A program made the translations under genes and the position numbers. A stretch of 64,000 nucleotides of DNA from a virus (taxonomy: Duplodnaviria > Heunggongvirae > Uroviricota > Caudoviricetes), in the IMG/VR virus record IMGVR_UViG_3300038393_000245, positions 76,289 to 140,288 of that record, one strand, 5' to 3'. The notes beneath the pieces were generated by a model, which was not told the DNA's origin, ran no database searches, and saw nothing but the letters and a program-made list of their open reading frames with translations. Every line of letters starts with the position of its first letter. Position 1 is the first letter of the stretch. Of this stretch, positions 11,662 to 28,648 are shown one piece after another.

Positions 11662-11669
11662 AAAAGCCT

Positions 11670-11974: not shown

Positions 11975-11977
11975 CGA

Positions 11978-14361: not shown

Positions 14362-14408
14362 TGTAGAACTCGGGCAACTTTTCTAGGGCCCACTTTTTTA
14401 CGGAAACG

Positions 14409-15379: not shown

Positions 15380-15614
15380 TAGCGTCAGGGTCGTTCTAGA
15401 GCTCAGTGTTAATGAGGCCGCCGTTCTTCACAACATCCTACATCATGTCGTAGGGAGCACTCTAGGACCTCGACAATACGCTCTATCCGTCTGGGATGCT
15501 CTAGAAAAAGCCTCTCTATCCGAGCCCTCGATACTCGTGAAGTCCGACCGAACCGCGGCTTTCTGCGAGACTCCTTCATTATCGATCTCCTACAGGTCGG
15601 GGTCGATCGGCTAA
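15354..15614 (+). CDS. hypothetical protein (86 aa)
   Basis: Start of the GC-elevated region. Confidence 0.4.
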   Translation: MAECTVISDSVRVVLELSVNEAAVLHNILHHVVGSTLGPRQYALSVWDALEKASLSEPSILVKSDRTAAFCETPSLSISYRSGSIG

Positions 15615-15629
15615 TCCCTAGAGAAAACA

Positions 15630-16043: not shown

Positions 16044-16045
16044 AC

Positions 16046-16213
16046 ATGCTCACTCATCTAACATATTATCTCCTCGGAGAACCTGAGAAGCTCTATCATA
16101 AGGGCGGACTTCTCTATGAGCTACAACAGCGCTCTTATAAGGAACTTCAGAGAAGAAACCAAGAGCTCGACGCCTGGAGAAAGAGGTTTCGTCGGTGGCC
16201 GTACTGAGGAGTT
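16046..16213 (+). CDS. hypothetical small protein (55 aa, not in ORF track)
   Basis: ATG 3 nt after the upstream stop. The alternative frame 16116..16370 gives an Arg/Ser-rich low-complexity product. Confidence 0.3.
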
Positions 16214-16245
16214 CTGCCGCTCCGAAAAATTTTGGAAGTGTTCCT

Positions 16246-16455
16246 ATGGCAAAGACCGATATGAAAGTAGTAGAGAAAAACTGGGAGTCAGACGGATACT
16301 TCTATACGATCTTCAAAGAAGGAATCCTATACTCGGTAGCTCCTCATGTAGGACAGCCAGAAGAAGCTAGAACGATAGAGAGTATTAAGAAGGCTCATCG
16401 ATCGTTTCTAGACATCAAGGTCAGAAATCTCAGAGTTGCTCCGGAAAAATTCTGA
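16246..16455 (+). CDS. hypothetical protein (70 aa)
   Basis: ATG at 16246 with GGAAG 9 nt upstream. The listed ORF uses an upstream non-ATG start. Confidence 0.45.
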   Translation: MAKTDMKVVEKNWESDGYFYTIFKEGILYSVAPHVGQPEEARTIESIKKAHRSFLDIKVRNLRVAPEKF

Positions 16456-16537
16456 AGAACGAGGGAACGCTTCAATGGACCCTTATGGATACCAACGATC
16501 GAAGGTTCGATATGGGACCCATTGTGGCACATGGCAA

Positions 16538-16563
16538 GGGCGACCATGCGATCGCCCTTGCTT
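16538..16563. terminator. bidirectional hairpin terminator between convergent blocks
   Basis: CAAGGGCGA-ccatgcga-TCGCCCTTG, perfect 9-bp stem, lying between the plus-strand operon end (16455) and the minus-strand gene end (16592). Confidence 0.55.
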
Positions 16564-16591
16564 CCGTGCGTTCGAGTGTGCGTAGAGATCG

Positions 16592-16942
16592 TTAGTCCTC
16601 GTCGGCGTCCTCCGCGACGGGAGCGAACTCGGCGCCATTCTCGGCGAGCGAGATGTAGCCGTGACCCGAGTCGTGGCGAATGTCGTCCATGCGCAGGCCC
16701 TCGTCGAGGCAATCCTGAACACTCACGCCGCCCTCGATCGTCCAGTCGATCGCGAAATACCCCTTAAAACGGTCGTACGACATCGACGGCTTTTTCTTGG
16801 GATTCTTCGTGACGTTAAGGCGTACGAGGGTGGTCGCCTTCCACTGGTCGCGCTTGGACAATGAGGCGAGGGTGTCGTTCGTGGCGACTTGGGTCATTGC
16901 AAGGTCCTTTCCATTGCCGTTTTGATGGGACCATTCTACCAC
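16592..16942 (-). CDS. hypothetical protein (116 aa), GC-rich
   Basis: Promoter TTTACA-N17-TAGAAT at 16934-16961 directly upstream. Confidence 0.5.
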   Translation of the reverse strand: MVEWSHQNGNGKDLAMTQVATNDTLASLSKRDQWKATTLVRLNVTKNPKKKPSMSYDRFKGYFAIDWTIEGGVSVQDCLDEGLRMDDIRHDSGHGYISLAENGAEFAPVAEDADED

Positions 16943-16961
16943 GAATCAATGGTATTGTAAA
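16934..16961 (-). promoter_or_regulatory. early promoter AAAAGCCC-TTTACA-N17-TAGAAT
   Basis: Reverse complement aaaagcccTTTACAataccattgattcgtggTAGAAT. Confidence 0.55.
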
Positions 16962-17041
16962 GGGCTTTTTTTTCGTTCGTGTTGAATTTTGTGGTTGACA
17001 TTTCCGATTAATCGAATTCGAATCGGATGGATGATACAGTG

Positions 17042-17302
17042 TTACTCGTCCTCGTCGCGACGAGGATCCACCAGACTCATCGACTCGATCACGTAACGAT
17101 CCCCGGTGACCGACTCGCATATGATAGTGCAGTCGCTGTCCATCAGTCGATAGACCGAGCCCGAGTCGAGAGCGTCGAATGAGCGCTCAAGAGCGTTAAC
17201 CGTGGAGAGCATGCTCTCCAGAACGTGCGACAGATGGAGCGAGCAGACGAGCGAGCTAGCGCTGCCGTTAGCGTGCCGGATGTATCCGATGTAGGCTCTC
17301 AT
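17042..17302 (-). CDS. hypothetical protein (86 aa)
   Basis: ATG at 17302 in ATGA overlap with the upstream membrane ORF. Confidence 0.45.
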   Translation of the reverse strand: MRAYIGYIRHANGSASSLVCSLHLSHVLESMLSTVNALERSFDALDSGSVYRLMDSDCTIICESVTGDRYVIESMSLVDPRRDEDE

Positions 17303-17490
17303 CGCGCGATCCACAGGACTACGATGAGCACGATAGCGAAGATCGTGAGACCGTCGAGCAGCCCACCGATCCACACTCTGTGCAGCACCATATAAGGCGC
17401 CATCGGCGTGCTCCAGAGGTCGCGCGCCAGAAGGAACGAGGCGACGATACAGAGCGCCGCAATCAATGCAAGGACAATCAATGCCATCAC
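17299..17490 (-). CDS. small membrane protein (2 TM)
   Basis: Hydrophobic 63 aa. Confidence 0.5.
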   Translation of the reverse strand: MMALIVLALIAALCIVASFLLARDLWSTPMAPYMVLHRVWIGGLLDGLTIFAIVLIVVLWIAR

Positions 17491-17669
17491 TTCACCTCCA
17501 CGTCTTGGACTAGTCGATACAACCGGTCTCGATAGAAGAAGAGACCGGTATCAGGCTCGATCGCGTACTGCAGCTGCTCCAGGAAGTCGTCGCCCCACTC
17601 GATCATGATGAACCGAACGGAGACCGGGATGGGGTCTGGCTGCCTGTATACGTGAATCGGAATAAACAT
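17487..17669 (-). CDS. hypothetical protein (60 aa)
   Basis: GGAGGT SD. Promoter at 17697-17725. Confidence 0.45.
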   Translation of the reverse strand: MFIPIHVYRQPDPIPVSVRFIMIEWGDDFLEQLQYAIEPDTGLFFYRDRLYRLVQDVEVK

Positions 17670-17696
17670 GGAACTATTACCTCCGAATATAGTAGT

Positions 17697-17725
17697 ATTC
17701 TATATCGCAGGACTGGAAATGTCAA
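17697..17725 (-). promoter_or_regulatory. early promoter TTGACA-N15-TATAGAAT
   Basis: Reverse complement TTGACAtttccagtcctgcgaTATAGAAT. Confidence 0.6.
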
Positions 17726-17905
17726 TAGCAAAGTTATCGAGTCGAACAGAAGTACTCAGGGTCGGAGTCGTCCGATGCGCGAGAGAATCATCGAGTGATG
17801 AGAAACAACGAACGACTCAGCGGTCGCAAGGTTGAGTACAATAGGGCGCGATAGGGCGCTGAAGCGTGCAATAGGGCGCTCGCGTACGTTTTCAGAACAG
17901 GGATT

Positions 17906-18112
17906 TTATTCCATGTCATCTAGCAACGCTCTCTTCGCTTCTTTCAACGTCTTATAGAATGCGCGGCCCGGAGTCGAGCTAGGAGACATCACGCCAGGAA
18001 CTGATACGATGCATCCACCGTGAGCTCTATATCGCTTTATAGTACCAACGACTCTTCCGTCTTTGAGTACTACGACCGTCTCGTTCTTTATCGGAGTGAA
18101 GTCGTATCCCAT
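17906..18112 (-). CDS. hypothetical protein (68 aa)
   Basis: Promoter at 18119-18147 whose -10 ends 6 nt before the ATG, a possible leaderless mRNA. Confidence 0.5.
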   Translation of the reverse strand: MGYDFTPIKNETVVVLKDGRVVGTIKRYRAHGGCIVSVPGVMSPSSTPGRAFYKTLKEAKRALLDDME

Positions 18113-18165
18113 GGTCGTAGTCTATCACAGTCAGATAGAAATGTCAAGGAGCGATATCATGATAC

Positions 18166-18324
18166 TATGATCCTCTTACCGAGGCGAGAAGCTCGTAGTA
18201 GTCGAATCTTATCTCTACGAGATCGTGGCCGATTTCTACTGGAGTTTTTGTATTGACGATTTCTATCTGTTCGAGGATTTCTCCGCCTTCTGTCGTTACG
18301 ATGAGGATGACGGAGGCCATCAGC
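18166..18324 (-). CDS. hypothetical small protein (52 aa, not in track)
   Basis: ATGA overlap with the stop of 18320..18616. Confidence 0.3.
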
Positions 18325-18616
18325 TTTCTCCTATGACGTAGCTGACCTTCAGGGCGTTCTTCTGCCAGGTGTTCAGAGACGACAGGACGTCGATGTCGAA
18401 CTTATCGAGCCTGCACTCGAAGTGATCTCGAGCGGCGTACTGGTCGGAGCTCGACATGCCGTTGAGTCGAGAGACCATCTCCTCGAGGCCGGCGAAGTCG
18501 TTCTCTCGATAGATCTCCTCGCTCTGGAGTAGCGTGACGTCGTCGGTATAGACGCCACCCTCACAGAGCTCGTCCTCGCCACGCTCGTTGATGAACACCA
18601 GGAATCGATAGCTCAT
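18320..18616 (-). CDS. hypothetical acidic protein (98 aa)
   Basis: ORF track. GC-rich codons. Confidence 0.5.
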   Translation of the reverse strand: MSYRFLVFINERGEDELCEGGVYTDDVTLLQSEEIYRENDFAGLEEMVSRLNGMSSSDQYAARDHFECRLDKFDIDVLSSLNTWQKNALKVSYVIGES

Positions 18617-18629
18617 TGACGAACTCCCT

Positions 18630-18860
18630 TCAGATCGATGCCACGGCGAACGCGTCTTTCTCGACGTGCTCGTATAGCGATGACAGCCTGGCGGCCTCTG
18701 CCTCGGCGTCTCTTTCTTTTCGAAACGCCGACTGGACGGAGCCTACGACTTCGACGCTTACGTCCTTATCGATGTAGACGACGTGATTGAAGCCCATGAG
18801 GAGCAGGTCGCGTCTCTCGTTCTGGTCGAGGCGAATGCGGTCGTTTGAGAGTGGCATCAC
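18630..18860 (-). CDS. hypothetical protein (76 aa)
   Basis: ORF track. Confidence 0.5.
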   Translation of the reverse strand: MMPLSNDRIRLDQNERRDLLLMGFNHVVYIDKDVSVEVVGSVQSAFRKERDAEAEAARLSSLYEHVEKDAFAVASI

Positions 18861-19039
18861 GGGTACTTTCTGTACGCTCGGGGCTGTTCGAGCTCGGTGT
18901 TCAGAGGGACGGAGATGATTCCGTGCTCTCCACAGTCGAGACTCATCCTCGGGCCTCGATTGAAGACGAGGTGTATGTGTCTACGAACATACTTCTCGAC
19001 TCTTCGAACCCTGCGACGATGGGCCGTTCTCCACCTCAT
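18857..19039 (-). CDS. hypothetical basic protein (60 aa)
   Basis: ATGA overlap with the upstream 44-aa ORF. Confidence 0.35.
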   Translation of the reverse strand: MRWRTAHRRRVRRVEKYVRRHIHLVFNRGPRMSLDCGEHGIISVPLNTELEQPRAYRKYP

Positions 19040-19170
19040 CGAGACTTCCTGTCACGGCGAATCATTCGACGAACATCGGATCTCGTCTCGCATCCGTCGG
19101 CGAAGGCGGGACGGCACTTGGTGACAGTGCGAGTCTCGAGAGCTTCCGCGATGAGTTCGGCATCGGTCAT
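19036..19170 (-). CDS. hypothetical small protein (44 aa, not in track)
   Basis: First ATG after the promoter at 19199-19227. SD AGAGGAAAGGG. Confidence 0.3.
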   Translation of the reverse strand: MTDAELIAEALETRTVTKCRPAFADGCETRSDVRRMIRRDRKSR

Positions 19171-19198
19171 TTGAAGTCCCTTTCCTCTTGATATCCCC

Positions 19199-19227
19199 TA
19201 TTCTATACATCAGAAGAAAAACGTCAA
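19199..19227 (-). promoter_or_regulatory. early promoter TTGACG-N-TATAGAAT
   Basis: Reverse complement ccaTTGACGtttttcttctgatgtaTAGAATA. Confidence 0.55.
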
Positions 19228-19230
19228 TGG

Positions 19231-19389
19231 CTATTTTTTCGACAGCTCTCGCTTCTCGGCTGCTCTCAGCTCGTACACGTACTGACGATTCTGCAGATCG
19301 ATGAGTTGCACCTCCTCGACTTCGCCTCGATGTAGCATCCTGATGAGGAGAGCGAGGTTATGCATCGAATAGTCGACAGGGCTCTTCAT
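19231..19389 (-). CDS. hypothetical small protein (52 aa, not in track)
   Basis: ORF between 19422..19718 and the promoter at 19199-19227. Confidence 0.25.
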   Translation of the reverse strand: MKSPVDYSMHNLALLIRMLHRGEVEEVQLIDLQNRQYVYELRAAEKRELSKK

Positions 19390-19421
19390 GAGCCCGCGTT
19401 TATTCTGATCGATACCGCCTT

Positions 19422-19718
19422 CTATCGCATCGTCTTTCGAGAGAGGATCGAGGAGAGGACTCGAACCATTCGATTCTTGTCGTTCAGGTGCTCGCTCATA
19501 GTGAGAGTGAATGACTGGGCGAAATTGGGCTCGTTGCGAGCCAGAGTCCCCACGAGATACCCTCCGATGACTCCATTCTTCTTCTCGAAGCTCCTCTCGG
19601 TCCAGATCGAGGCGAAAGCGATGCCGCGATCATCAGACGCGATATCGAGACCATAATCAGCGCCCTCTAGGGCGCTCTTAGCCGTTTCGAATGAGACATC
19701 GTCCACGATGTATTTCAT
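19422..19718 (-). CDS. hypothetical protein (98 aa)
   Basis: Promoter at 19751-19778. Confidence 0.5.
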   Translation of the reverse strand: MKYIVDDVSFETAKSALEGADYGLDIASDDRGIAFASIWTERSFEKKNGVIGGYLVGTLARNEPNFAQSFTLTMSEHLNDKNRMVRVLSSILSRKTMR

Positions 19719-19750
19719 CTCACCATTTCCTCTCTTTCGTGTATGATGTC

Positions 19751-19778
19751 ATTCTATATCGAAGAAAGAAAATGTCAA
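19751..19778 (-). promoter_or_regulatory. early promoter TTGACA-N-TATAGAAT
   Basis: Reverse complement ggTTGACAttttctttcttcgaTATAGAAT. Confidence 0.6.
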
Positions 19779-19788
19779 CCCTCGTTTA

Positions 19789-20097
19789 TCAAGAAGCTCC
19801 CATCGTAAAAACGAAGTTTGCAGCATAATCCTCACAATAGGCTGGCTTGTCGTATTTCACATTCCAACCTTTGGATCGATACGCTTCCTCGAAATTGAGG
19901 TATCCCTTGTTGAAAATTACGTTACGAGATAATCCGCGTTCGCAGAGTTCGAAGACGATATCCTCTTGAAGAATCGTCGCTCTTCCGTGCGTATATTTTA
20001 GAGCGAGAAGACGATTCACCACCTCAAATACTTCGTCAGGAATGTTTTCCGACTTCGCTTTAGCGATATCGTCTGGTGAGATGGGTTCGACTGCCAT
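19789..20097 (-). CDS. hypothetical protein (102 aa)
   Basis: ORF track. Confidence 0.5.
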   Translation of the reverse strand: MAVEPISPDDIAKAKSENIPDEVFEVVNRLLALKYTHGRATILQEDIVFELCERGLSRNVIFNKGYLNFEEAYRSKGWNVKYDKPAYCEDYAANFVFTMGAS

Positions 20098-20120
20098 TTT
20101 AATTCTCCGTGTTGTTCATG

Positions 20121-20378
20121 TCAATCGTTATCCAATCGATTCGAATAGCTTTTCACGAACGTGAGATCATTTCCATCGACGTCCGTGTAGTGAATCACAT
20201 GGTACGTGGAAGTCCATACGACGGACTCGACTCGGAGTGCGAAACGATCGTACTCGTAGAGTTCTCTCGCCATCTTAGTGGCGTCTTCCTCGCTGAGTCG
20301 AACAGTATGATCGCTCGAGCACATCCTCATCCTGAGGAGATGATCGGTCAGGTGTCGTTGCATCGCACTCATATTCAC
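20121..20378 (-). CDS. hypothetical protein (85 aa)
   Basis: ORF track. Overlapping start/stop with the next ORF. Confidence 0.45.
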   Translation of the reverse strand: MNMSAMQRHLTDHLLRMRMCSSDHTVRLSEEDATKMARELYEYDRFALRVESVVWTSTYHVIHYTDVDGNDLTFVKSYSNRLDND

Positions 20379-20692
20379 GCTCCAGCCAGCGTAATGTACT
20401 TTTCAGGGAACCCCATCGAGACGGGAATGATATCGTATGACATCTCATTATCCACGAACGAGAAGCTAAGAGAACCATCATCGTTTTGTTCGAATGATTC
20501 TCGTGTCTCCAAGATGTCTCTGAGATCTAGTTGCTCATCGTCGTCGATATAGTTCTCGATGTAGTCGTTCACCTCAGAAAGGATGTGATCCTTAGCCTCG
20601 TCGATTGACTCGGCGATTCCCATAAGAGAGACATTAACATCGAATACCTTGGTGACGTATTCTGTATTGTGTCGAATCACTAAGTACATCAC
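20375..20692 (-). CDS. hypothetical acidic protein (105 aa)
   Basis: ORF track. Confidence 0.5.
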   Translation of the reverse strand: MMYLVIRHNTEYVTKVFDVNVSLMGIAESIDEAKDHILSEVNDYIENYIDDDEQLDLRDILETRESFEQNDDGSLSFSFVDNEMSYDIIPVSMGFPEKYITLAGA

Positions 20693-20711
20693 AAGACCCT
20701 TTCGAAAGATC

Positions 20712-20993
20712 TCAGCCGGCGACCTTCAGCCAACGGCCGTCTGGCTGCCTCTCGTATTTTTGACCTCGTCCAAGGCCAAGAGAACAACCATAAGAAACGA
20801 ATGCGTCGTGACCGATGTTTCCCCACCCGATTCCAGGAACGTTCGCGTCATACATGACGTCTCCAAGAGGAGTACCGTTGACCTGACAGTGAGTAGGGTT
20901 GGACCCAATCCAGTAGATTCGATCGCTCATCCGTGTCTCCATCGTTGGCTTAAAAAGAGAGTCGATGGCGAGACGGCCTGGGATTTCCCACAA
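20712..20993 (-). CDS. hypothetical protein (93 aa)
   Basis: GTG start with GAGAGGT SD. Promoter at 21117-21147. Confidence 0.4.
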   Translation of the reverse strand: MWEIPGRLAIDSLFKPTMETRMSDRIYWIGSNPTHCQVNGTPLGDVMYDANVPGIGWGNIGHDAFVSYGCSLGLGRGQKYERQPDGRWLKVAG

Positions 20994-21143
20994 TTACCTC
21001 TCGCTTTTCCCATTGGCGACTAACCCAATGAAACGGACGATTTGATGCCAGTCTAGCATTTGTCGCCCACTTTAATATCCACCGACACTCTTTTTAAACC
21101 AACCTCCTCTATATTCGTATACTAATACGATATAAAGAAAATG

Positions 21144-21353
21144 TCAACTTCGTTTTTTTCGATACCAGCTCTCGAGCCTTTGGTCCTTTCGATCGGACCA
21201 CCATCTCCAGATTTGATGCAGCTCTGTGGATTTATGGATGTTGACGCACGAGCTCCAATTATCCATCGCTCTCTCGCATCGATCCTGCATCTGATCGAGC
21301 GAGAGATTCTCTGAGATATAGTAGATGATAGCGCTCATATGTTTACGTACCAC
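21144..21353 (-). CDS. hypothetical protein (69 aa)
   Basis: ORF track. Confidence 0.35.
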   Translation of the reverse strand: MVRKHMSAIIYYISENLSLDQMQDRCERAMDNWSSCVNIHKSTELHQIWRWWSDRKDQRLESWYRKKRS

Positions 21354-21601
21354 CTCTGTCCAACGAGAGCAGTGTCCTCGTTGGAGAATAGAAGACGACC
21401 ATTCTCACCATACGTATGACCACAACAATCATACGAGTGAGTGCAGTGCGATCCTGGATATTTTTGAGAGACCATCTCTCTCAGTTCGTCTGGAGTCATA
21501 TTCTCATGAGAGATGATGTAGTAGTCGATTCCGGACGATGCGTCATCCGGATCGTAGTACTTTGTTGAGAGCCCCAGAACAGTGTATCGTTCATCGCTCA
21601 T
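21335..21601 (-). CDS. hypothetical Cys/His-rich protein (88 aa)
   Basis: HCTHSYDCCGH cluster. Confidence 0.5.
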   Translation of the reverse strand: MSDERYTVLGLSTKYYDPDDASSGIDYYIISHENMTPDELREMVSQKYPGSHCTHSYDCCGHTYGENGRLLFSNEDTALVGQRWYVNI

Positions 21602-21828
21602 TGGGCCATCTCCTCAAGAAGATACGTTCCAACGTATGGAACGCACGTCGTCTTCAGTTCAGAGAGTCGATCCGTCGTTGTAGTGATTACACGACAATCA
21701 TTGTACGTGTTTCGAACGTATGACCTTAACCACTCGTAGTTAGAACGATCGGATCGAGACAGGCAGAAGATATCGTGAATACGATCATCCTGTCTATCCA
21801 CCGGTATCAAGACGATTTGCCTGGACAT
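21598..21828 (-). CDS. hypothetical protein (76 aa)
   Basis: Promoter at 21849-21878. Confidence 0.5.
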   Translation of the reverse strand: MSRQIVLIPVDRQDDRIHDIFCLSRSDRSNYEWLRSYVRNTYNDCRVITTTTDRLSELKTTCVPYVGTYLLEEMAQ

Positions 21829-21848
21829 CAGGAACCTCCCATCTTGAT

Positions 21849-21878
21849 TATTCTACTACATGTGATTAGAAATGTCAA
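21849..21878 (-). promoter_or_regulatory. early promoter TTGACA-N17-TAGAAT
   Basis: Reverse complement tgTTGACAtttctaatcacatgtagTAGAAT. Confidence 0.6.
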
Positions 21879-21987
21879 CAGACGATTTATTGTAATCCGG
21901 CTTACAGGAGACCGCGAGAGACGCGGTCGTCACTGCTAGTATGATTCCAATGATAGCTCGCCACATAGAGAATTCCCCCTCGAGTAG

Positions 21988-22070
21988 AAGAGAAGGCCGG
22001 AATCGAACCGACGACAGGTCCTAAGAGGGGTTACAATCCCAGGACTGCTCTACCACTGAGCTACTTCTCT
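21988..22070 (-). tRNA. atypical tRNA-like gene (83 nt), candidate anticodon UGU (Thr) on an abnormally extended anticodon arm
   Basis: Reverse complement reads AGAGAAG-UA-GCUC-AGUGGUA-GAGC-A...GUCGG-UUCGAUU-CCGGC-CUUCUCU-U. Acceptor, U8A9, D-arm and T-arm are canonical. The anticodon arm is 28 nt (GUCCU-GGG-AUUGUAA-CCC-CUCUU-AGGAC) instead of 17. Consensus promoter at 22078-22108 places the transcription start at its 5' end. Confidence 0.5.
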
Positions 22071-22077
22071 TCCATGT

Positions 22078-22108
22078 ATATTCTAATACACTTGAAAAGA
22101 AATGTCAA
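22078..22108 (-). promoter_or_regulatory. early promoter TTGACA-N17-TAGAAT driving the tRNA-like gene
   Basis: Reverse complement ccaTTGACAtttcttttcaagtgtatTAGAATatacaTGG. The +1 position falls at or near the tRNA 5' end. Confidence 0.6.
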
Positions 22109-22117
22109 TGGCAAAAT

Positions 22118-22423
22118 CTAGGTGAGAGCGCACCCATCTAGAAACTCGATCGCCCAGCTGCTGTACGAGAATCTCTTTCTGAGTTCCTCGTTAGAGTGAT
22201 CCTTGATTTGATCGTACCACGATCGAGCCTCTTCGTGAAAGAGCTCTTCGTGCTCATCGCTCTCCATCAAGTGACCGGCGAGAGAATCGATCTCGCCTTC
22301 TGGAGTGTCGCACCAGTGTTCAGGGTTTCCAAGAGGGTCTCGAACGTGTTGTCGGAGACCAAGGTTGCTCACGGCCAGCATAGCGGCAAGATGAGATAAA
22401 ATTTGTCCTCGAGTTTGAGTCAC
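22118..22423 (-). CDS. hypothetical protein (101 aa)
   Basis: ORF track. Confidence 0.5.
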   Translation of the reverse strand: MTQTRGQILSHLAAMLAVSNLGLRQHVRDPLGNPEHWCDTPEGEIDSLAGHLMESDEHEELFHEEARSWYDQIKDHSNEELRKRFSYSSWAIEFLDGCALT

Positions 22424-22797
22424 GCTGCCTCCTTCTTCTCCTCATTGCGACGAATGCGATATTCATATTCGCGAACGGCGCTGTCGAAAACTCTCTTCAC
22501 CCACTTGGAACGAGACTCATTGGGGAAGACATTCGTCCTCAACCCGATATGATCTCGAACGTTCTGAAGAGTGATGTCGATCTCCCCTTTGGGCCACGGA
22601 GAAATCGCGTCATCCGCTTTCAGCCGGATGAAGAACTCGATGTAATTCTTTTCGGTGATCTCTCCAATGCCCGTCGACATCGTAGCGAAGATGAGATACT
22701 CGGTCACCGGATTAAGTCGATTGTCGTCGATAAGACACCTCGACTTCCAGTCCTTAATTCGAGTCAACTCGTAATTGAGGCTCATTGTTTCCTCCAT
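22420..22797 (-). CDS. hypothetical protein (125 aa)
   Basis: Promoter at 22808-22835. Confidence 0.5.
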   Translation of the reverse strand: MEETMSLNYELTRIKDWKSRCLIDDNRLNPVTEYLIFATMSTGIGEITEKNYIEFFIRLKADDAISPWPKGEIDITLQNVRDHIGLRTNVFPNESRSKWVKRVFDSAVREYEYRIRRNEEKKEAA

Positions 22798-22807
22798 TTC
22801 TTATCAT

Positions 22808-22835
22808 ATACTAATTCGATAAGAAGGAAATGTCA
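22808..22835 (-). promoter_or_regulatory. early promoter TTGACA-N17-TAGTAT
   Basis: Reverse complement TTGACAtttccttcttatcgaatTAGTAT. Confidence 0.55.
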
Positions 22836-22844
22836 ATAGACGAT

Positions 22845-23198
22845 TTATTCGTCTTCTGTGGCGAGGGAGAGAGACTCTTTTTGGAGTTCTCTCGAGAGAT
22901 CGTACTCGGGGATAAGAGAGCCTCCGGTATCCCACGTCCGAGCCGTGTCGAGTTTGTCATTGAAGGCGAGTCGACCCTCTTCTTCGGTTCTGTGATATCG
23001 GCCCCAGAAGAATGACCGAGGGTGAAGAGATCCCCTCGGACGAGTGAAACTCCAGGCGATGAACTCGTCTTTGTCGTCTCCGAACTTATTCGGATTGCGC
23101 ATCAGAATGAGCCCACCAGCCTGAGTGAATCTGTCCGGTCGTGTGTACCGAACATCCAGGACTTCCATTCCGTTTACGATATCACCCTTCTTCATCAC
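22845..23198 (-). CDS. hypothetical protein (117 aa)
   Basis: Promoter at 23227-23254. Confidence 0.5.
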   Translation of the reverse strand: MMKKGDIVNGMEVLDVRYTRPDRFTQAGGLILMRNPNKFGDDKDEFIAWSFTRPRGSLHPRSFFWGRYHRTEEEGRLAFNDKLDTARTWDTGGSLIPEYDLSRELQKESLSLATEDE

Positions 23199-23226
23199 TC
23201 GACTCCCATCTGTGATTTATGGGATT

Positions 23227-23254
23227 ATTCTATATCGAGGAGAAAAAACGTCAA
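23227..23254 (-). promoter_or_regulatory. early promoter AAAAGCCC-TTGACG-N-TATAGAAT
   Basis: Reverse complement aaaagcccTTGACGttttttctcctcgaTATAGAAT. Confidence 0.55.
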
Positions 23255-23287
23255 GGGCTTTTAATAACACAAACAAAGAAGAATCTG

Positions 23288-23316
23288 TTGACAATTGTGA
23301 TTTGTTTGATTAGAAT
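23288..23316 (+). promoter_or_regulatory. consensus TTGACA-N17-TAGAAT on the plus strand, antisense to the 3' end of gene 23310..23498
   Basis: ttgaca attgtgatttgtttgat tagaat. Three hairpins lie downstream at 23350-23400. Confidence 0.4.
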
Positions 23317-23498
23317 GAGAAGCCTCGACTCCTCTTTCCATTCGACACAGAAAAGTACTCGAATGGACTCAACGTCGAGTCGAACTTCTTCTTCGACTTA
23401 AACTTAGAGCGTCCCGTTGACATTGGAATCTTTTGTACTCGAACAGCCTTTTCCAATTTGTTTAGAGAGACTACAGTATTCTCTTTTTGTTCTTTCAT
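23310..23498 (-). CDS. small Lys/Arg-rich basic protein (62 aa)
   Basis: AAGGAGGAG SD 5 nt upstream of the ATG. Confidence 0.45.
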   Translation of the reverse strand: MKEQKENTVVSLNKLEKAVRVQKIPMSTGRSKFKSKKKFDSTLSPFEYFSVSNGKRSRGFSF

Positions 23499-23508
23499 TT
23501 CTCCTCCT

Positions 23509-23793
23509 TCATGTCGAGCTCAGAACCCACGCTCTCTTGCCGTCCGATATCGTATAGACTCTCCAGATCGAGCCGTCGCCGAAGAGATCGTTCACTTCGA
23601 GAAGCGCTCCCTCTTCAACCTCTCCACCATGGAATCGGAACCGTTGCCCAGGTCCAAGAGAATACTTGATAGAGTCGTGAACCATTACGGTATCTTCTCT
23701 AACGTCCTCAATCTCAACTAGTTCATACTCGTGGCCGTGACTTCGAACGTACTCTTCTAGTATCTTCAGCAATGGATCTGAGATCGTCTCCAT
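23509..23793 (-). CDS. hypothetical acidic protein (94 aa)
   Basis: ORF track. Confidence 0.5.
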   Translation of the reverse strand: METISDPLLKILEEYVRSHGHEYELVEIEDVREDTVMVHDSIKYSLGPGQRFRFHGGEVEEGALLEVNDLFGDGSIWRVYTISDGKRAWVLSST

Positions 23794-24074
23794 CAGAACA
23801 GCCCTCCGAGTGAGTCAAACTTCTCTTCGAACCCCCACGAGTGGCCTCTTCCTTTGAAGACTCTCGCATATAGATTAGGATGCCCCGTCGCATTAACGGG
23901 GTCGCCAGGCTTTCGAAGGAGTATTTCGGTAGACGACGAGGAGTACGCGACCGTGTAGCCAGCGTCATTGGCTCTTTTAAGAGCCCTTTGTTGGTGCTCT
24001 CTAGATCGATCTGGCATGAGGTTCTTCAAGAGGCCGAGCTCCCATCCACGAGAAGTTCCTCTCTGTCTTCCCAT
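23793..24074 (-). CDS. hypothetical protein (93 aa or shorter), overlaps the upstream ORF
   Basis: Overlaps 24001..24354 by 74 nt in another frame. An internal ATG at 24019 would reduce the overlap to 17 nt. Confidence 0.35.
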   Translation of the reverse strand: MGRQRGTSRGWELGLLKNLMPDRSREHQQRALKRANDAGYTVAYSSSSTEILLRKPGDPVNATGHPNLYARVFKGRGHSWGFEEKFDSLGGLF

Positions 24075-24354
24075 ATAGAAGACCTCCAGGATAGTCGGAA
24101 CGAGGAGGGTCTATAGCGTGGTTGGCAGCGTTGATGATAATCTCACACATCGGCTTTTCCGAGATGAGTCCATCACCAAAGCACTCGAGGCCCCAGTGTT
24201 GTTCTCCGTATCCCGATCCTTCCGGAGATACGTCTTCGGCATCTACCATGAGTCCGTACAAGCGTCCGCGCTTCATCTTGATATCATCGAACATGTTCAA
24301 CTGGTCCTTTCTAGGACGACCCAGGAATGCATTCCACCAGGTATCAATTCCCAT
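24001..24354 (-). CDS. hypothetical protein (117 aa)
   Basis: Promoter at 24362-24390. Confidence 0.45.
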   Translation of the reverse strand: MGIDTWWNAFLGRPRKDQLNMFDDIKMKRGRLYGLMVDAEDVSPEGSGYGEQHWGLECFGDGLISEKPMCEIIINAANHAIDPPRSDYPGGLLYGKTERNFSWMGARPLEEPHARSI

Positions 24355-24361
24355 TATGCTT

Positions 24362-24390
24362 ATTCTATATCAGAGAATAAAACATGTAAA
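24362..24390 (-). promoter_or_regulatory. early promoter AAAAGCCC-TTTACA-N-TATAGAAT
   Basis: Reverse complement aaaagcccTTTACAtgttttattctctgaTATAGAAT. Confidence 0.55.
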
Positions 24391-24422
24391 GGGCTTTTAT
24401 TTTATTCAGACAGTTGACAATA

Positions 24423-24680
24423 TTATAGCGGCTGCTTATAAGAGTAGACGTTTTGTTTATTCTTAACGTCCATAACGTTTCCATTGATCGTGACAGATTC
24501 TACGATCCTCTGATCGGTTCCGTCCTCATTGACGCTATTGAGTCTCTCGAGTTGTTCGAAAAACATGTAACCGTCACTGTCTTCGTTATCAAAGTTTTGG
24601 ATCGTAATGGATCCGTCGATGTTGTTCGTGTATGTGAGTGTCCAGACTCGATCGCCCACAACCATAGAGGCTTTTTTCAT
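24423..24680 (-). CDS. hypothetical protein (85 aa)
   Basis: AAGGG SD. Preceded by a ~280-nt structured leader. Confidence 0.5.
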   Translation of the reverse strand: MKKASMVVGDRVWTLTYTNNIDGSITIQNFDNEDSDGYMFFEQLERLNSVNEDGTDQRIVESVTINGNVMDVKNKQNVYSYKQPL

Positions 24681-24967
24681 TTATTCCCTTGTTTGTATGA
24701 GGTGGGTGGAGACGACCTTCCAGTTGGCCTAGGCGTCGCCCCCACCCTCTCACCGTGCCCGAGGATGGGAGGGTTAGGCACGGCAAGTTCAAATTTCAAT
24801 CGAATACTTTGGTCTGTTGTCGTTGACCGGCTTCTTTTCTTTAACGCCTGACATGAGCCGTATGAGTGCTGAACCGTTGGTATATCTTAACGCACCATCA
24901 CGACTCAGAAAACTATAGCACGGAAGACCACAGACCCAAAGCACGATCCTATTCCAATCCTAGGGCT

Positions 24968-24995
24968 ATTCTATCACAGACTCCTAAAATTGTCA
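24968..24995 (-). promoter_or_regulatory. early promoter TTGACA-N17-TAGAAT
   Basis: Reverse complement ccTTGACAattttaggagtctgtgaTAGAAT. Confidence 0.6.
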
Positions 24996-25196
24996 AGGCA
25001 ATATTTCAAGAGACTTATTGTGCTGCTCGAGAACCCGAACCTCTACGAGTCTTGCGCTCATGTAGTCAGGAATCACCTCAACGGCCTTATTGAACCTTTC
25101 GACGGCTCCATCTCGAGTATCCCGGAATCGTCGAACCGTGTCCCATCCATCTCCGGTGTCGACATCGATGGCAAACTGCACACAATTTTTGGCCAT
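24993..25196 (-). CDS. hypothetical protein (67 aa)
   Basis: ORF track. Confidence 0.4.
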   Translation of the reverse strand: MAKNCVQFAIDVDTGDGWDTVRRFRDTRDGAVERFNKAVEVIPDYMSARLVEVRVLEQHNKSLEILP

Positions 25197-26209
25197 TACC
25201 TTCGGCCTCCCTTTTCGATGTATGAGATGAACCCGTGTTCCTCAATAGTAAACCGAAGATCATTCTTCTTCTTCTCTTTCATCGCATTGAGGAAGTTGAT
25301 GCACCTCTCAACGGTGAGTGGACGCTCTGGAACCGAGAGCGTCATGTGTTTTGGAAATTGAAAGTTGGGGTGAAGATCGACTCTGGGCGCCTCATCGCGA
25401 TGTACAATCTCCATCGCTCTTTGCCCAGTCTCGATGATCTCTTCTTGTGGTGTGGGAGGAGTCTTAAGAGGAGTCGCGATCTCTTCAATCTTAACGTCCT
25501 CTTTCTTCTCCAGAGACTCGATTCTCTTTTTCCCTCTCAAAATCGGGGGCAGTCGATCCTTTGGAACCTCGATAAGAATTTCGTTCTTATGAGGTCTCAC
25601 TCCAACAGCAGGGGCCGATCTGAACTCTCCGAACTTCTCTTTAACTCCAGGAGCCATGGTAGAAGACATGACAAGGACGAATGCACGAGACATCTTCGAG
25701 TATCCTCCTTGAATGATGCCATCGACCTTCTTCTTGCCTTTTGGGAGTTCCTTTTTGACCACGGCTATCCATGGATCTTTTTCGAGTGAGTGGCTCGTCC
25801 TCAGTTCGATCCCCCAGTGTCCTGCCGGTCTATGATCCTTGTCAACGAATCTTTCAAAAAGCTCATTCCCTTCGGGAATCGTTACGAAAATCTGAGTACT
25901 CGTGATTCCAACCCTAATGGGTGATCCCTCGGCCATGTTGTGTTTTTCCTCTTTCATCTGTCGCCTACCAGGGATCATCTCCCTTCTCTCGGCTCCAATC
26001 TCTCGAAGCACGGACCTCATGTTAGTAACAACATTCTTTGGTCCTCGAACGGTGTCGCTTCCAGTGGATGGAAGGGTTATGAACTTCCTTTTTCCACTAA
26101 GAGTAAAGGTCGCCTTCCTGTGCTTACTCAGACGATCCCACTCTATCGACACTCCTGGCCAGTGCTCGATCTCTTGTTCGACTGCTGATATGAATGGATC
26201 TCGAGCCAT
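25196..26209 (-). CDS. hypothetical protein (~337 aa), Lys-rich
   Basis: ATG at 26209 with GGAG SD. The listed 26224 start is TTG. Confidence 0.55.
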   Translation of the reverse strand: MARDPFISAVEQEIEHWPGVSIEWDRLSKHRKATFTLSGKRKFITLPSTGSDTVRGPKNVVTNMRSVLREIGAERREMIPGRRQMKEEKHNMAEGSPIRVGITSTQIFVTIPEGNELFERFVDKDHRPAGHWGIELRTSHSLEKDPWIAVVKKELPKGKKKVDGIIQGGYSKMSRAFVLVMSSTMAPGVKEKFGEFRSAPAVGVRPHKNEILIEVPKDRLPPILRGKKRIESLEKKEDVKIEEIATPLKTPPTPQEEIIETGQRAMEIVHRDEAPRVDLHPNFQFPKHMTLSVPERPLTVERCINFLNAMKEKKKNDLRFTIEEHGFISYIEKGGRR

Positions 26210-26363
26210 TAATCGTCTCCCCAATCACATCGACAGGAGTTGCACCTCCAACGATGAAGATTGGAATCCCACGACGCGTCGTCCTTGCACCATATCAGGC
26301 ACTTGAGACGATTTAGTGGAACCACGATGGCTCTCACTATGCGACGAATCTTTTCCCTCTTCG

Positions 26364-26543
26364 TCATAGGGCGTATTCGGGCTGGAGGATGAACCCATTC
26401 GCGTCCATCGTCTTAATCCCACGGTGCATGCTCTTTTCGAGAGAGGCTCGAACTCGCATGAGATGAAGAGTAGTAGTCTGGCGTGGAAGCCTCGTCCTGA
26501 AGACGTGTCCATTCACATTGACCGACTCTATCAGAATATCCAT
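26364..26543 (-). CDS. hypothetical small protein (59 aa)
   Basis: ATG at 26543 with perfect GGAGGT SD 6 nt upstream. Promoter at 26568-26595. Confidence 0.45.
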   Translation of the reverse strand: MDILIESVNVNGHVFRTRLPRQTTTLHLMRVRASLEKSMHRGIKTMDANGFILQPEYAL

Positions 26544-26620
26544 TTGCACCTCCCATTTGATGATACATCTTAATTCATGATAGGAAAAATGTCAATAACA
26601 TGTTAAAAATCGGCACACCA

Positions 26621-26649
26621 TTGACAATTCTATCGAGAGTGGTTATAAT
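26621..26649 (+). promoter_or_regulatory. perfect sigma70 consensus promoter (TTGACA-N17-TATAAT) with no ORF downstream
   Basis: ttgaca attctatcgagagtggt tataat. The transcript would run ~215 nt to the terminator at 26845-26875. Confidence 0.6.
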
Positions 26650-26689
26650 GGCTTTGGGCCCAATGAACTATTAGATCGTGTTTCTCAGA

Positions 26690-26789
26690 TGGCCACTGAT
26701 CAATGGATAAATCTAAACAATAGGATATACCATTTATCTCGATAATGTATTCTAAGGCCACTCTGAAGGGCAAATTCCATATCGATTTT
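26690..26789 (+). repeat. inverted repeat copy A (core 26719-26789)
   Basis: aataggatataccatttatctcgata + 11-nt variable block + ggccactctgaagggcaaattccatatcgatttt. Reverse-complement copy at 29005-29075. Confidence 0.8.
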
Positions 26790-26844
26790 CATTGATAGGA
26801 GTATTCAATATGATATTCAGAACACGGACACACGAAAAGGGACC

Positions 26845-26875
26845 GAGTTTCCCCGGTCCCTTTGTTTGAGTGATG
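26845..26875. terminator. bidirectional rho-independent terminator
   Basis: GGGACCG-agtttcc-CCGGTCCC followed by TTTGTTTG. Also lies 10 nt past the stop of the minus gene 26885..27463. Confidence 0.65.
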
Positions 26876-26884
26876 TTAGCCTTG

Positions 26885-27463
26885 TTAGGCGGTGGCTTCC
26901 TCGGCCGCGACTTCGGACTTGGCCTCGGCCTTCTCCTCGACCGGGGCATCCTTGAACCCCCAGGCGATGAGGCGCTTCTCGTCGATCGAGAAGCCGGCCT
27001 CGGTCTTCGGAAGCGAAGCCAGATACTCGGCCTGCTCTTCGCGAGTCCCATCGACCGGGAAGTTCTCGGCCTCCTCTCCGAGGAGGATGTGCCGGCGATC
27101 GGCATCCCACGAGATGTCCTTGCCACGAACTCGCTCCGAGCCGTCCTTGTTCCGACGGGCCGTCATGAAGTCGCTCATGGTGAGTCGTGCCGGATACTTG
27201 TCATAGAAGCCGGCAGCCTTGCTGTTCTTGCGCTTCGGGTTCGGAGCGATGACCACCAGGGCCATCGGCTTCTCCGGAATCGCTTCCGGCTGGTTGTCGG
27301 TCGTATTCTCCGACTCGGCGCGGGGACCGGGACGGCGGCCGCCGGTCGAACCACTCGAACCGGACGACTTGGCGGAATCGGTAGCCGAACCCCGGGCTTC
27401 CTGACGGGACGTTGCATTCTTGGCCATTCTTCTTCTCCTGCTCTCGGTGGGTTGAATTTCCAT
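26885..27463 (-). CDS. hypothetical protein (180-192 aa), high-GC
   Basis: GC-rich codons unlike the rest of the genome. Promoter AAAGCC-TTTACA-N17-TAGAAG at 27475-27502. Alternative ATG at 27427 with AGGAGAAG SD. Confidence 0.55.
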   Translation of the reverse strand: MEIQPTESRRRRMAKNATSRQEARGSATDSAKSSGSSGSTGGRRPGPRAESENTTDNQPEAIPEKPMALVVIAPNPKRKNSKAAGFYDKYPARLTMSDFMTARRNKDGSERVRGKDISWDADRRHILLGEEAENFPVDGTREEQAEYLASLPKTEAGFSIDEKRLIAWGFKDAPVEEKAEAKSEVAAEEATA

Positions 27464-27661
27464 CCGATGAACCCCTTCTATACCCGTTAAGTTTTATTGT
27501 AAAGGCTTTTTTTCAATATTCAATTAAAAAGGTTTCGGACGACTAATCACGCTTATTAATCTCACGCGCGCGCGTATAGGGACTTCTTATGATAAAAAGC
27601 CCTTTACATCGAAAATATGATGATATAGTATGGTCAGGTTGGATGCAGAAAGAGGTTTAAC

Positions 27662-28648
27662 ATGACAGCCGTAATGCCGGAGGAACGTAGGATTCCTTCA
27701 ATCCCTCGAGTAGTTACTCGAGGTCCAGCAGCCAGGAAACCTGGAGAAGAGAGCGCCTCGAGCGCCGCGAAGGACGTCCAGTTCTTTTCAAACTCTCCAC
27801 TTCACCGTCAGCTTCGATACCAGTATCTCCCGGATTACGATCCTAACGAATCCGATGAACAGATCGAGGATAAGCTGAATGAGCGCTTTCTTATCATGAA
27901 TGAGCTCACCGATGATGCTATTGACGGAAGGTGTCGAGGGTTCATCGCTTCTGGCCCCGGTGGCGTAGGAAAGACCTACAACATCGACAAAAAGCTCGAG
28001 GAGAGGCTTGGAGAGGATGAGTACACGTCGTATTCAGGGTATTCAACCCCAATCGGTCTACTCAAGATGTTGTGGAACAATCGAGAGGGTCTCATCAAGG
28101 CCGACGATATCGATTCGATCTTCAAAGACGAAAAGGCTCTTAACTATCTAAAGGTCGCGTGTGACACTACGGCTAGGAGAGTCATCACGTATGCGTCTGA
28201 AAACACCCTTTTCGATGAGAACCTCGAACCCATTCCAAAGAGGTTTGAGTTCGATGGAACGATGATCTTCTGCACGAATCTTGATTTCGATTATCTGATC
28301 GATAAGGGTTCGTCTCTCACTCCTCACTTGGAAGCGTTCATCACTCGTTCTCATTACATCGATCTCGCGATGAGAACAAAAAGGGATTATCTTGTTCGTG
28401 TCTATCAGGTGGCCGAACAAGGTCTCTTTGATAACGTTCTTGGAAAGTCTGGAGAACCTCACGGACTCGATAAGAATCAGACCGACGAGGTTTTAGACTT
28501 CATCGAGTCCTACCATCGAAATCTCCGTGAGTGTTCTCTTCGTATGGCACTTAAGATTGGATCACTTCGAAAGGGATTCGATCCCGAGAATGATACCGTA
28601 GATTGGAAGCGTAAGGCGCTTCTGACTTGTTGCAAGGGAGTTCGGTGA
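27662..28648 (+). CDS. AAA+/P-loop NTPase (328 aa)
   Basis: Walker A GPGGVGKT, Walker B LIKADDID, sensor-like FCTN. Promoter AAAAGCCC-TTTACA-N17-TAGTAT at 27603-27631. AGAGGT SD. Confidence 0.6.
   Translation: MTAVMPEERRIPSIPRVVTRGPAARKPGEESASSAAKDVQFFSNSPLHRQLRYQYLPDYDPNESDEQIEDKLNERFLIMNELTDDAIDGRCRGFIASGPGGVGKTYNIDKKLEERLGEDEYTSYSGYSTPIGLLKMLWNNREGLIKADDIDSIFKDEKALNYLKVACDTTARRVITYASENTLFDENLEPIPKRFEFDGTMIFCTNLDFDYLIDKGSSLTPHLEAFITRSHYIDLAMRTKRDYLVRVYQVAEQGLFDNVLGKSGEPHGLDKNQTDEVLDFIESYHRNLRECSLRMALKIGSLRKGFDPENDTVDWKRKALLTCCKGVR

Follow-up and report, generated by a model that had tools for sequence, protein, structure and literature searches.

A phage tRNA-like gene with an intact tRNA body and a 28-nucleotide anticodon arm

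The DNA examined here is a 64-kb window (64,000 nucleotides (nt), positions 76,289 to 140,288 of IMG/VR virus record IMGVR_UViG_3300038393_000245) of a 173,592-bp JGI contig from a phage of the class Caudoviricetes. At 21988-22070 on the minus strand of this window lies an 83-nt tRNA-like gene. A sequence-only reading had listed an acceptor helix, U8A9, a D arm, and a T arm for this gene without stating its strand; every element quoted there is present at 21988-22070, and on the minus strand the gene reads AGAGAAG-UA-GCUC-AGUGGUA-GAGC-A-GUCCU-GGGAUUGUAACCCCUCUU-AGGAC-CUGUC-GUCGG-UUCGAUU-CCGGC-CUUCUCU-U. Its parts are as follows.

21988-22070, minus strand: the whole tRNA-like gene, matched by Rfam RF00005 (tRNA), with a cloverleaf as its minimum-energy fold
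22064-22070, minus strand: 5' strand of the acceptor stem, AGAGAAG, with 7 of 7 Watson-Crick pairs to CUUCUCU at 21989-21995
22062-22063, minus strand: U8A9, directly 3' of the acceptor 5' strand
22047-22061, minus strand: D arm GCUC-AGUGGUA-GAGC with G18G19, placed by the RF00005 alignment and by sequence, and followed by A26
22018-22045, minus strand: 28-nt anticodon arm GUCCUGGGAUUGUAACCCCUCUUAGGAC, whose canonically placed outer stem GUCCU/AGGAC encloses 18 nt (22023-22040)
22038-22040, minus strand: GGG flank of AUUGUAA
22031-22037, minus strand: AUUGUAA, a canonical-looking 7-nt anticodon loop (U33, UGU for Thr, A37)
22023-22030, minus strand: CCC-CUCUU flank of AUUGUAA
22013-22017, minus strand: 5-nt variable loop CUGUC, with G46 and C48 present
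21996-22012, minus strand: T arm GUCGG-UUCGAUU-CCGGC
21988-21995, minus strand: acceptor-stem 3' strand, CUUCUCU, and discriminator U; CCA is not encoded, and CUA comes next

The match to RF00005 runs end to end (model positions 1-71) and scores 49.3 bits against a gathering score of 29 bits (E = 1.6e-7 for the whole window), so the likeness to tRNA is far beyond chance. The 55 nt outside the anticodon arm show no mismatch or loss: the acceptor, D, and T stems consist of 16 base pairs, every one standard, and the tertiary partners U8-A14, G15-C48, G18G19, and G46 are all there, as is the T loop UUCGAUU. The anticodon arm, at 28 nt rather than the normal 17, carries the 11-nt excess that the sequence-only reading had counted, and RF00005 places 18 nt where the 7-nt anticodon loop belongs, with all other arms in place. 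That reading had allowed that covariance models might, after re-checking, fold the gene as an ordinary tRNA. This is excluded, as the model still requires the 18-nt insertion. A functional tRNA has a 5-bp anticodon stem and a 7-nt loop with U33 and a purine at position 37, whereas here GUCCU/AGGAC closes 18 nt. Annotation tools mis-call genes of this kind: the label tRNA-Tyr(gta) that ARAGORN assigns is an artefact that depends on a shifted D stem with a mismatch and on a 3-bp anticodon stem, and intron options alter nothing.

One possible source of the extra bases is an intron, which would be removed either through a bulge-helix-bulge or by a phage nuclease-plus-ligase route to leave a normal tRNA. 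We removed in turn every contiguous segment of 1 to 20 nt between the D and T stems and required of the product at least 4 of 5 stem pairs, a 7-nt loop with U33, and a variable loop of 3 to 6 nt. None of these single excisions restored a canonical arm. Only double excisions work, the cleanest of which drops GGG (positions 31-33) together with CCCCUCUU (positions 41-48) and leaves GUCCU-AUUGUAA-AGGAC-CUGUC, a perfect tRNA-Thr(UGU) arm. The two dropped flanks are complementary to each other. Because only a double excision restores this textbook arm, the gene resembles a tRNA-Thr(UGU) in which two complementary insertions have pushed an intact anticodon loop off its stem.

Other aspects of the sequence also speak against splicing. 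Excision at the canonical 37/38 intron site would give the loop GGGAUUU, with G33. When predicted folds were checked by hand, no bulge-helix-bulge (two 3-nt bulges, 4 bp apart) was present; these folds have either no bulge or one 5-nt bulge beside a 3-bp helix. At 11 nt the insert is too short for a group I intron, which needs about 200 nt or more, and none was matched in Rfam scans of the window. The same D-to-T spacing in cellular genomes does include a few intron-like archaeal tRNAs, and relatives of this phage encode an RNA ligase and PNKP; the host, on the other hand, is evidently bacterial, judging from the alpha-type two-piece transfer-messenger RNA (tmRNA) of the phage and from its nearest phages, which infect Caulobacter and Sinorhizobium. 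Most GTDB matches to this spacing are class II tRNAs of DPANN archaea, with long variable arms and not long anticodon arms. We therefore consider an intron highly improbable, and the "mini-insertion" suggested in the sequence-only reading holds as a description of 11 extra nucleotides and fails as a removable segment.

In ViennaRNA, the 83-mer adopts a cloverleaf of -29.0 kcal/mol. In the preferred fold, the arm is a continuous 9-bp helix, GUCCUGGGA/UCUUAGGAC, with two G.U pairs and a 10-nt loop, UUGUAACCCC (pair probabilities of ~0.92). The earlier proposal of a GGG/CCC stem presenting AUUGUAA is borne out to the extent that such a pedestal (5 bp, a 5-nt CUCUU bulge, GGG/CCC, and the 7-nt loop) can form, but it is a minor predicted conformer, 2.6 kcal/mol costlier at -26.4 kcal/mol and making up <1% of the ensemble (pair probability of <0.01, versus ~0.92). 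A third register, in which GGG pairs with C42-C44, accounts for ~6%. Since nearest-neighbour energies leave out U-turn and tertiary stabilisation, the pedestal form with its AUUGUAA loop is possible, but it is not the default conformer. The arm has 8-9 bp in any fold. A search for an antisense target of the arm within the window matched only the gene itself.

With 8-9 stacked pairs instead of 5, and nothing in the rest of the molecule that compensates for them, the gene probably does not decode and is instead a tRNA look-alike or a disabled tRNA. While the 3' end is in the peptidyl-transferase centre, a loop held ~3-4 bp too far out from the elbow would not reach the decoding centre. The extra helix cannot, in turn, serve as proof of selection, and we dropped it as such: 14-16% of shuffled or random 18-nt inserts fold the arm at least as stably, and 5% of flank shuffles make a 3-bp pedestal closing AUUGUAA, so that shuffles attain comparable pairing in 5-15% of cases.

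The flanks of the gene hold a promoter and a short downstream unit.

22103-22108, minus strand: -35 hexamer TTGACA of a predicted phage early promoter, a member of a 10-copy family
22080-22085, minus strand: -10 hexamer TAGAAT, separated from tRNA position 1 by the 9 nt AUACAUGGA (22079-22071)
21856-21987, minus strand: predicted co-transcribed downstream unit, a 21-nt spacer plus a 36-amino-acid (aa) open reading frame (ORF) beginning MWRAIIGIILAVTTASLAVSC...
21975-21981, minus strand: Shine-Dalgarno sequence GAGGGGG, within the 21-nt spacer that follows the discriminator
21856-21966, minus strand: 36-aa lipoprotein-like ORF with signal …LAVSC, directly downstream of the tRNA-like gene

A consensus promoter with its start near the mature 5' end, as the sequence-only reading had claimed, is indeed present: TTGACA-17 nt-TAGAAT matches 11 of 12 consensus positions, as a strong sigma-70-type promoter would. 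Because 9 nt separate the -10 hexamer from tRNA position 1, transcription is predicted to begin at ~22074-22072, with a leader of ~2-4 nt. The near-consensus motif TTGACA(TTTC)-N17-TAKWAT occurs at 10 sites in the window, against 0.03 expected by chance. Seven of the 10 sites lie at 17.7-26.6 kb (17697-26649), where the minus strand holds five of them amid small ORFs, and further sites are found at 58365-58393 and 61909-61937; TTGACATTTC is common to 6 of the 10. From its sequence and distribution, we predict that the TTGACA-N17-TAKWAT family constitutes the early promoters of the phage.

Neither a promoter nor a convincing terminator was found between the tRNA-like gene and the 36-aa ORF 21 nt downstream. 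Terminator-like matches overlap the gene's own T arm and 3' acceptor strand, and the 3' end of the ORF is overlapped by the next promoter of the early family. The gene could accordingly be read as a cis-acting 5' leader or processing element of an early mRNA for the 36-aa ORF, in which RNase P and 3' processing would set the 5' end of the mRNA or the fold would protect the transcript. Alternatively, CCCCUC in the arm or CUUCUCUUCU at the 3' end could pair with the Shine-Dalgarno sequence GAGGGGG; CCCCUC (positions 41-46) is exactly complementary to GAGGGG. Also in keeping with a leader, a longer transcript would pair leader GGA with trailer UCU and extend the acceptor helix to 10 bp, and a small signal-peptide ORF stands directly behind the same promoter in a related phage contig (L090). 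That longer transcript, however, folds no better than shuffles (z = -0.04), and its Shine-Dalgarno sequence is unpaired in the centroid. A mere 5' hairpin, moreover, needs no full set of tRNA tertiary nucleotides, and the relatives do without the element. On balance, we think a leader role unlikely.

No homologue of the tRNA-like gene was found with an exact 17-mer in IMG/VR; with an architecture pattern that joined a D loop, an offset TTGTAA, and a T loop, in IMG/VR, JGI metagenomes, and GTDB genomes; with a GGG-N7-CCC pedestal pattern in IMG/VR; or by blastn of 4-kb and 151-nt queries against GenBank phages. Written as DNA, the 28-nt arm reads GTCCTGGGATTGTAACCCCTCTTAGGAC. Use of the CCA-adding enzyme of this phage as a probe for related IMG/VR loci likewise found none. 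The matches to the architecture pattern are eukaryotic-type tRNA-Tyr introns (giant-virus bins, algae) and chance initiator tRNAs.

Proteins encoded near the gene do lead to relatives. A homologue of the protein at 27662-28648, 75% identical to it, lies on contigs as long as 189,785 bp. A phrog_1250 protein leads to L090-L096, and homologues of a 125-aa ORF lead to L021-L039, L072, and L073; none of these contigs carries the tRNA-like gene. L090, the closest relative, is collinear with the window at 19-31 kb and contains a homologue (47% identity) of the 101-aa ORF whose end lies just upstream of the tRNA-like gene. The slot behind this homologue holds the promoter TTGACA-17-TAGTAT and then, directly, a 59-aa signal-peptide ORF (2742-2921, minus strand), with no tRNA. 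The gene is absent from the syntenic slot of L090-L092 and from the more distant L021-L039 and L093-L096, where the promoter type is kept (e.g., in L021), so the comparison with related phages proposed in the sequence-only reading turned up no counterpart in L021-L039 or L090-L096. A search with the 101-aa ORF found one other homologue, only in an unrelated P22-like contig that lacks the tRNA-like gene. Absence from collinear and distant relatives that keep the promoter indicates either a lineage-specific gain or a loss in all sampled relatives. A tRNA-Ile called by ARAGORN in L093/L094 is a false positive: it lacks a T loop, and Rfam does not support it. The purine-rich ribosome-binding region of L090 lines up with the 5' acceptor strand GGAAGAGAAG, which is itself rich in purines; this low-complexity similarity may be coincidence.

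This distribution raises the question as to whether the gene is a neutral relic, that is, a former tRNA-Thr(UGU) with insertions in its anticodon arm that is transcribed only by virtue of the early promoter. None of the relatives examined has this gene, which is a singleton, and the extra structure of its arm is within chance. Three relatives (L037-L039) carry an ordinary tRNA-Arg(UCU) and tRNA-Lys(UUU) in the same early region, tRNAs for A/U-ending codons being typical of the group. Demand for the presumed ancestor is modest: ACA makes up 20% of Thr codons in the long ORFs of the window, so codon usage gives little reason to supply a tRNA-Thr(UGU). Mis-categorised partial tRNA genes are also reported to be common in prokaryote annotation (PMC9897764). 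Against decay, the other 55 nt are without mismatch or loss, and the damage consists of two complementary insertions placed exactly around an intact 7-nt loop. Phage genomes are compact, yet this 83-nt piece sits between a promoter and the ORF that it drives. A relic is possible, and nearly as likely as the mimic that we favour below.

The wider genome provides context for a tRNA-like RNA.

30140-31318, plus strand: gene of the CCA-adding enzyme/poly(A) polymerase family (Pfam PolyA_pol, 6e-32; PolyA_pol_RNAbd, 2e-8)
32433-32795, plus strand: 120-aa AAA_33 kinase-like, fragment-like ORF
59727-60102, minus strand: two-piece, circularly permuted tmRNA of alphaproteobacterial type (RF04321, 89 bits; RF01849, 80 bits)
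L090:12576-16567 and L095:12212-15812: healing and sealing cassette in relatives

The phage is a T4-like myovirus, whose baseplate proteins include the gp6 type as well as further wedge, hub, and tail-tube-cap proteins. In tblastn, its gp6 homologue reaches no more than 39-40% identity to the counterparts in Caulobacter phage Cr30 and in the Sinorhizobium phages phiM12 and phiN3, and blastn found no nucleotide match among GenBank phages. The two-piece alpha-type tmRNA points to an alphaproteobacterial host. The CCA-adding enzyme could supply the CCA that the tRNA-like gene lacks. In L090-L092 and L095, the gene for this enzyme is followed by an RNA ligase (PF09414) and PNKP (HAD_PNKP plus AAA_33), and the cassette of L090-L092 also includes an AlkB-like 2OG-Fe(II) oxygenase. 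The same place in the window is occupied by an SPFH protein and the 120-aa AAA_33 ORF. RNA ligase and PNKP are the enzyme set with which T4 heals tRNA cut by an anticodon nuclease (Pnkp/Rnl1-PrrC).

Set beside a canonical class I tRNA-Thr(UGU), the gene shares the 7-bp acceptor, U8A9, the 4-bp D stem with G18G19, the 5-nt variable loop, the 5-bp T stem with UUCGAUU, a 5-bp helix at the anticodon-stem position, and AUUGUAA, the standard Thr(UGU) anticodon loop sequence. It differs in holding 18 nt instead of 7 within the anticodon stem, in lacking CCA, and in having no orthologue that we could find. A working tRNA-Thr(UGU) would have to accommodate the pedestal, for example by a kink at the bulge; it would be charged by threonyl-tRNA synthetase (ThrRS) and decode ACA and ACG, and its arm would resist nucleases. 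In line with this idea, the 7-nt loop is canonical (U33, UGU, A37), removal of the flanks gives a perfect Thr arm, and a second, conserved odd tRNA of this phage reads AGA, so odd tRNAs can function here. The pedestal fold nevertheless makes up only the small fraction of the predicted ensemble given above, and the A1-U72 and G2-C71 pairs depart from the acceptor determinants of Escherichia coli ThrRS. Phage tRNAs are reported to evade nucleases via anticodon-loop changes (PMC10264068). In the literature reviewed in PMC7609411, an anticodon stem of 6 bp is exceptional and comes with compensation elsewhere, and the window gene is a plain 7/5 class I molecule. We judge a working decoder to be quite improbable.

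Anticodon stems are 5 bp, exceptionally 6, and their length is among the most invariant features of tRNA (PMC7609411). In having a stem of more than 5 bp, the gene resembles tRNA-Sec, tRNA-Pyl, mitochondrial tRNA-Ser(UCN), and allo-tRNAs, and in some species the stem of tRNA-Pyl is, moreover, broken by unpaired bases or small loops (PMC7609411). The stems of these tRNAs are 6 bp, however, against 8-9 bp here, and the lengthening is compensated by 8/5, 9/4, 8/4, or 9/3 helices, short D loops, and 3-nt or long variable arms (PMC7609411). The window gene, in contrast, combines 7/5 helices and a 5-nt variable loop with its 8-9-bp arm. Every bacterial tRNA known is reported to be a canonical cloverleaf (PMC11551756). 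Structurally, the gene is a new variant among phage tRNA and tRNA-like genes, and we found no description in the literature of phage tRNA-likes with extended anticodon arms.

Engineered "tRNA scaffolds" are tRNA modules in which the anticodon arm is replaced. These scaffolds, the tRNA-like domain of tmRNA, and the bacterial YrlA/Y RNAs (PMC4201824) share with the window gene a tRNA-shaped acceptor/T/elbow module, a long helix at the place of the anticodon arm, and stability through handling by tRNA-processing enzymes. The natural ones differ in that tmRNA has no D stem and carries an ORF, whereas YrlA is permuted and linked to Ro/Rsr (PMC4201824). The tmRNA domain is defined by G3.U70, a missing D stem, a tag ORF, and pseudoknots; the window gene has A3-U70 and a full D arm in 83 nt, and Rfam scans matched it to neither tmRNA nor Y RNA.

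Phage tRNAs are known to counter tRNA-cleaving defences (PMC10264068, PMC11555353, PMC10802454, PMC13096335), including PrrC, VapC, colicins, retron Eco7 PtuAB, PARIS AriB, and Septu, and some evade the nucleases by changes in the anticodon loop (PMC10264068). The window gene is comparable in being a phage-encoded, predicted early tRNA-type RNA with a deviation in the anticodon arm, in a lineage with enzymes of the tRNA repair type. The defence-countering tRNAs differ in being functional and of normal shape, with point changes, and they replace cleaved host tRNAs rather than mimic them (PMC10264068, PMC11555353, PMC10802454, PMC13096335).

Long-armed tRNA-likes also occur in other viruses. A search of IMG/VR for a canonical D arm, 34-40 nt, and a canonical T loop returned 18 loci with ~12 distinct sequences, which score 37-65 bits as Rfam tRNA and mostly fold with anticodon arms of 25-30 nt. 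Long-armed tRNA-like loci in IMG/VR overall comprise L001-L018 and L097-L106. Like the window gene, they combine a canonical acceptor, D arm, and T arm with a hairpin, here of 23-28 nt, that replaces the usual 17-nt anticodon arm; they differ in belonging to other phages and, for the most part, in lacking an anticodon-like 7-nt loop. L001/L003 and L106 have exactly the 5 bp + 18 nt + 5 bp of the window gene. An inner GGG/CCC occurs in L001 and in L099, the latter with an 8-bp stem and a 7-nt loop. In L100/L102 the helix is interrupted and 10 bp long, the loop has 5 nt, and CCA is encoded. No arm sequence homology links the window gene to the long-armed tRNA-likes, and among the loci tested for protein similarity to the window (L001, L003, L099, L100, and L102) there was none.

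One set of these loci (L104/L105, L009, L012/L015, and L106) shares the arm tip C-U-GACG-A-G on 9-11-bp stems of wholly different sequence. This set is a true family with compensatory changes in its stems; the long hairpin is under selection there, and an anticodon loop is absent. The alternative that the CUGACGAG segments of this family are 8-nt introns fits L009 and L012 and fails for L104 and L106, and a hairpin tip is preferred. Three further loci are of note in their own right: L007 (5.3 kb) has several tRNAs of 82-94 nt, the odd member of L013 sits within an Arg-X-Ile-Gln tRNA cluster, and at L008:8057-8524 a long-armed tRNA-like adjoins an abiF RNA motif (RF03085, 50.8 bits), a tRNA-Asn, and a short match to a tmRNA model.

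We tentatively favour the reading that the window gene encodes an early-transcribed, non-decoding, lineage-specific tRNA mimic descended from a gene of the tRNA-Thr(UGU) type. RNase P and 3' processing would cut the RNA out, the host enzyme or the phage enzyme at 30140-31318 would add CCA, and the RNA would then build up as a stable mimic of tRNA early in infection. Most plausibly it would serve to occupy a host tRNA-recognising factor, such as a tRNA-targeting defence nuclease, a suggestion prompted by the tRNA healing and sealing genes of this phage group; the target and the effect are speculative. A mimic is suggested by the intact tRNA body with its high Rfam score, by a cloverleaf fold with a closed long arm, and by an arm that is restored only when two complementary flanks are removed, unlike the outcome of a single random insertion. 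It is also consistent with a promoter from the 10-member early family in a slot that relatives keep. Further support comes from the genomic context, in which the CCA-adding enzyme, the relatives' RNA ligase, PNKP, and AlkB-like protein, the tmRNA, and a second odd tRNA all occur, and from the precedent of unrelated IMG/VR phages with long-armed tRNA-likes, one family of which keeps its tip on different stems.

Several points weigh against a mimic. The extra pairing inside the insert is within chance, and the z-score of the whole fold against shuffles is only -1.9. The gene appears to be a singleton, with no covariation and no sign of purifying selection. We know of no nuclease specific for tRNA-Thr(UGU), and our literature search found no demonstration of a mimic or decoy function for any phage tRNA-like RNA. 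The regulatory RNA and the decoy for anticodon nucleases that the sequence-only reading had put forward are best kept as ideas. The decoy draws on the context of the phage's CCA-adding enzyme and the RNA ligase and PNKP beside it in relatives, and the pedestal fold that underlies it is a minor predicted conformer.

More broadly, the gene might be one example of an undescribed class of phage tRNA mimics, in which the tRNA body is kept and the anticodon stem-loop is replaced or lifted on a long hairpin; this seems doubtful at present. In such a class, a tRNA-Thr anticodon loop displayed out of register would trap, inhibit, or mislead a host enzyme that reads the anticodon arm, for example a defence nuclease or an enzyme of tRNA modification or charging. 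Other members of the class would be the long-armed tRNA-likes of unrelated IMG/VR phages, including the family with compensatory changes.

The contrast of a perfect body and a 28-nt arm with canonical cloverleaves (PMC11551756) and an invariant stem length (PMC7609411) leaves two ways to see the gene: as a snapshot of the death of a phage tRNA gene or as an RNA-level counter-measure against host tRNA-binding factors. If the latter is true, RNA mimics would join replacement tRNAs and repair enzymes among phage answers to tRNA-cleaving defences, and the gene would offer a starting point for classifying the long-armed tRNA-likes scattered through viral metagenomes.

The second non-canonical tRNA of the window lies at 58872-58950 on the minus strand. 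It scores 32.1 bits in Rfam, is missed by ARAGORN, and belongs to a conserved phage family with further members at L107:8869-8918(-), L108:9900-9950(+), L109:7131-7178(-), and L111:8724-8773(+). The family has a covarying 7-bp acceptor stem, U8A9, the anticodon loop CUUCUAC (UCU, Arg/AGA), and a T arm GCAGG/CCUGY; CCA is encoded in 4 of 5 members, and there is no D hairpin. Instead, a stretch of 3-4 nt immediately following U8A9 pairs with another of 3-4 nt immediately following the anticodon arm, and the two covary (CGC/GCG, ACGG/CCGU, CUC/GAG, CAC/GUG, and CGG/CCG); the 3' strand of this pairing is always followed by D-loop-like UA-R-Y-(N)-GGA. This pairing would put the anticodon arm in the place of the D loop, in a three-way junction. 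AGA, the codon read by this tRNA, is the commonest Arg codon in the window (39%). By its sequence features, the second tRNA looks like a rearranged but functional tRNA.

Three other observations concern the rest of the window. G+C content steps from 37-42% in the baseplate block (1-12000) to 47-52% in the early small-ORF region with the tRNA-like gene (14000-28000). A nicotinamide adenine dinucleotide (NAD) salvage pair at 54350-56810 on the minus strand consists of a nicotinamide phosphoribosyltransferase (phrog_448) and a cytidylyltransferase/Nudix NadR-like protein (phrog_395). Finally, an 880-aa protein encoded at 35033-37675 on the minus strand contains ~7 stretches of collagen triple-helix repeats (Pfam Collagen, 1e-75) and is probably a tail fibre or decoration protein.

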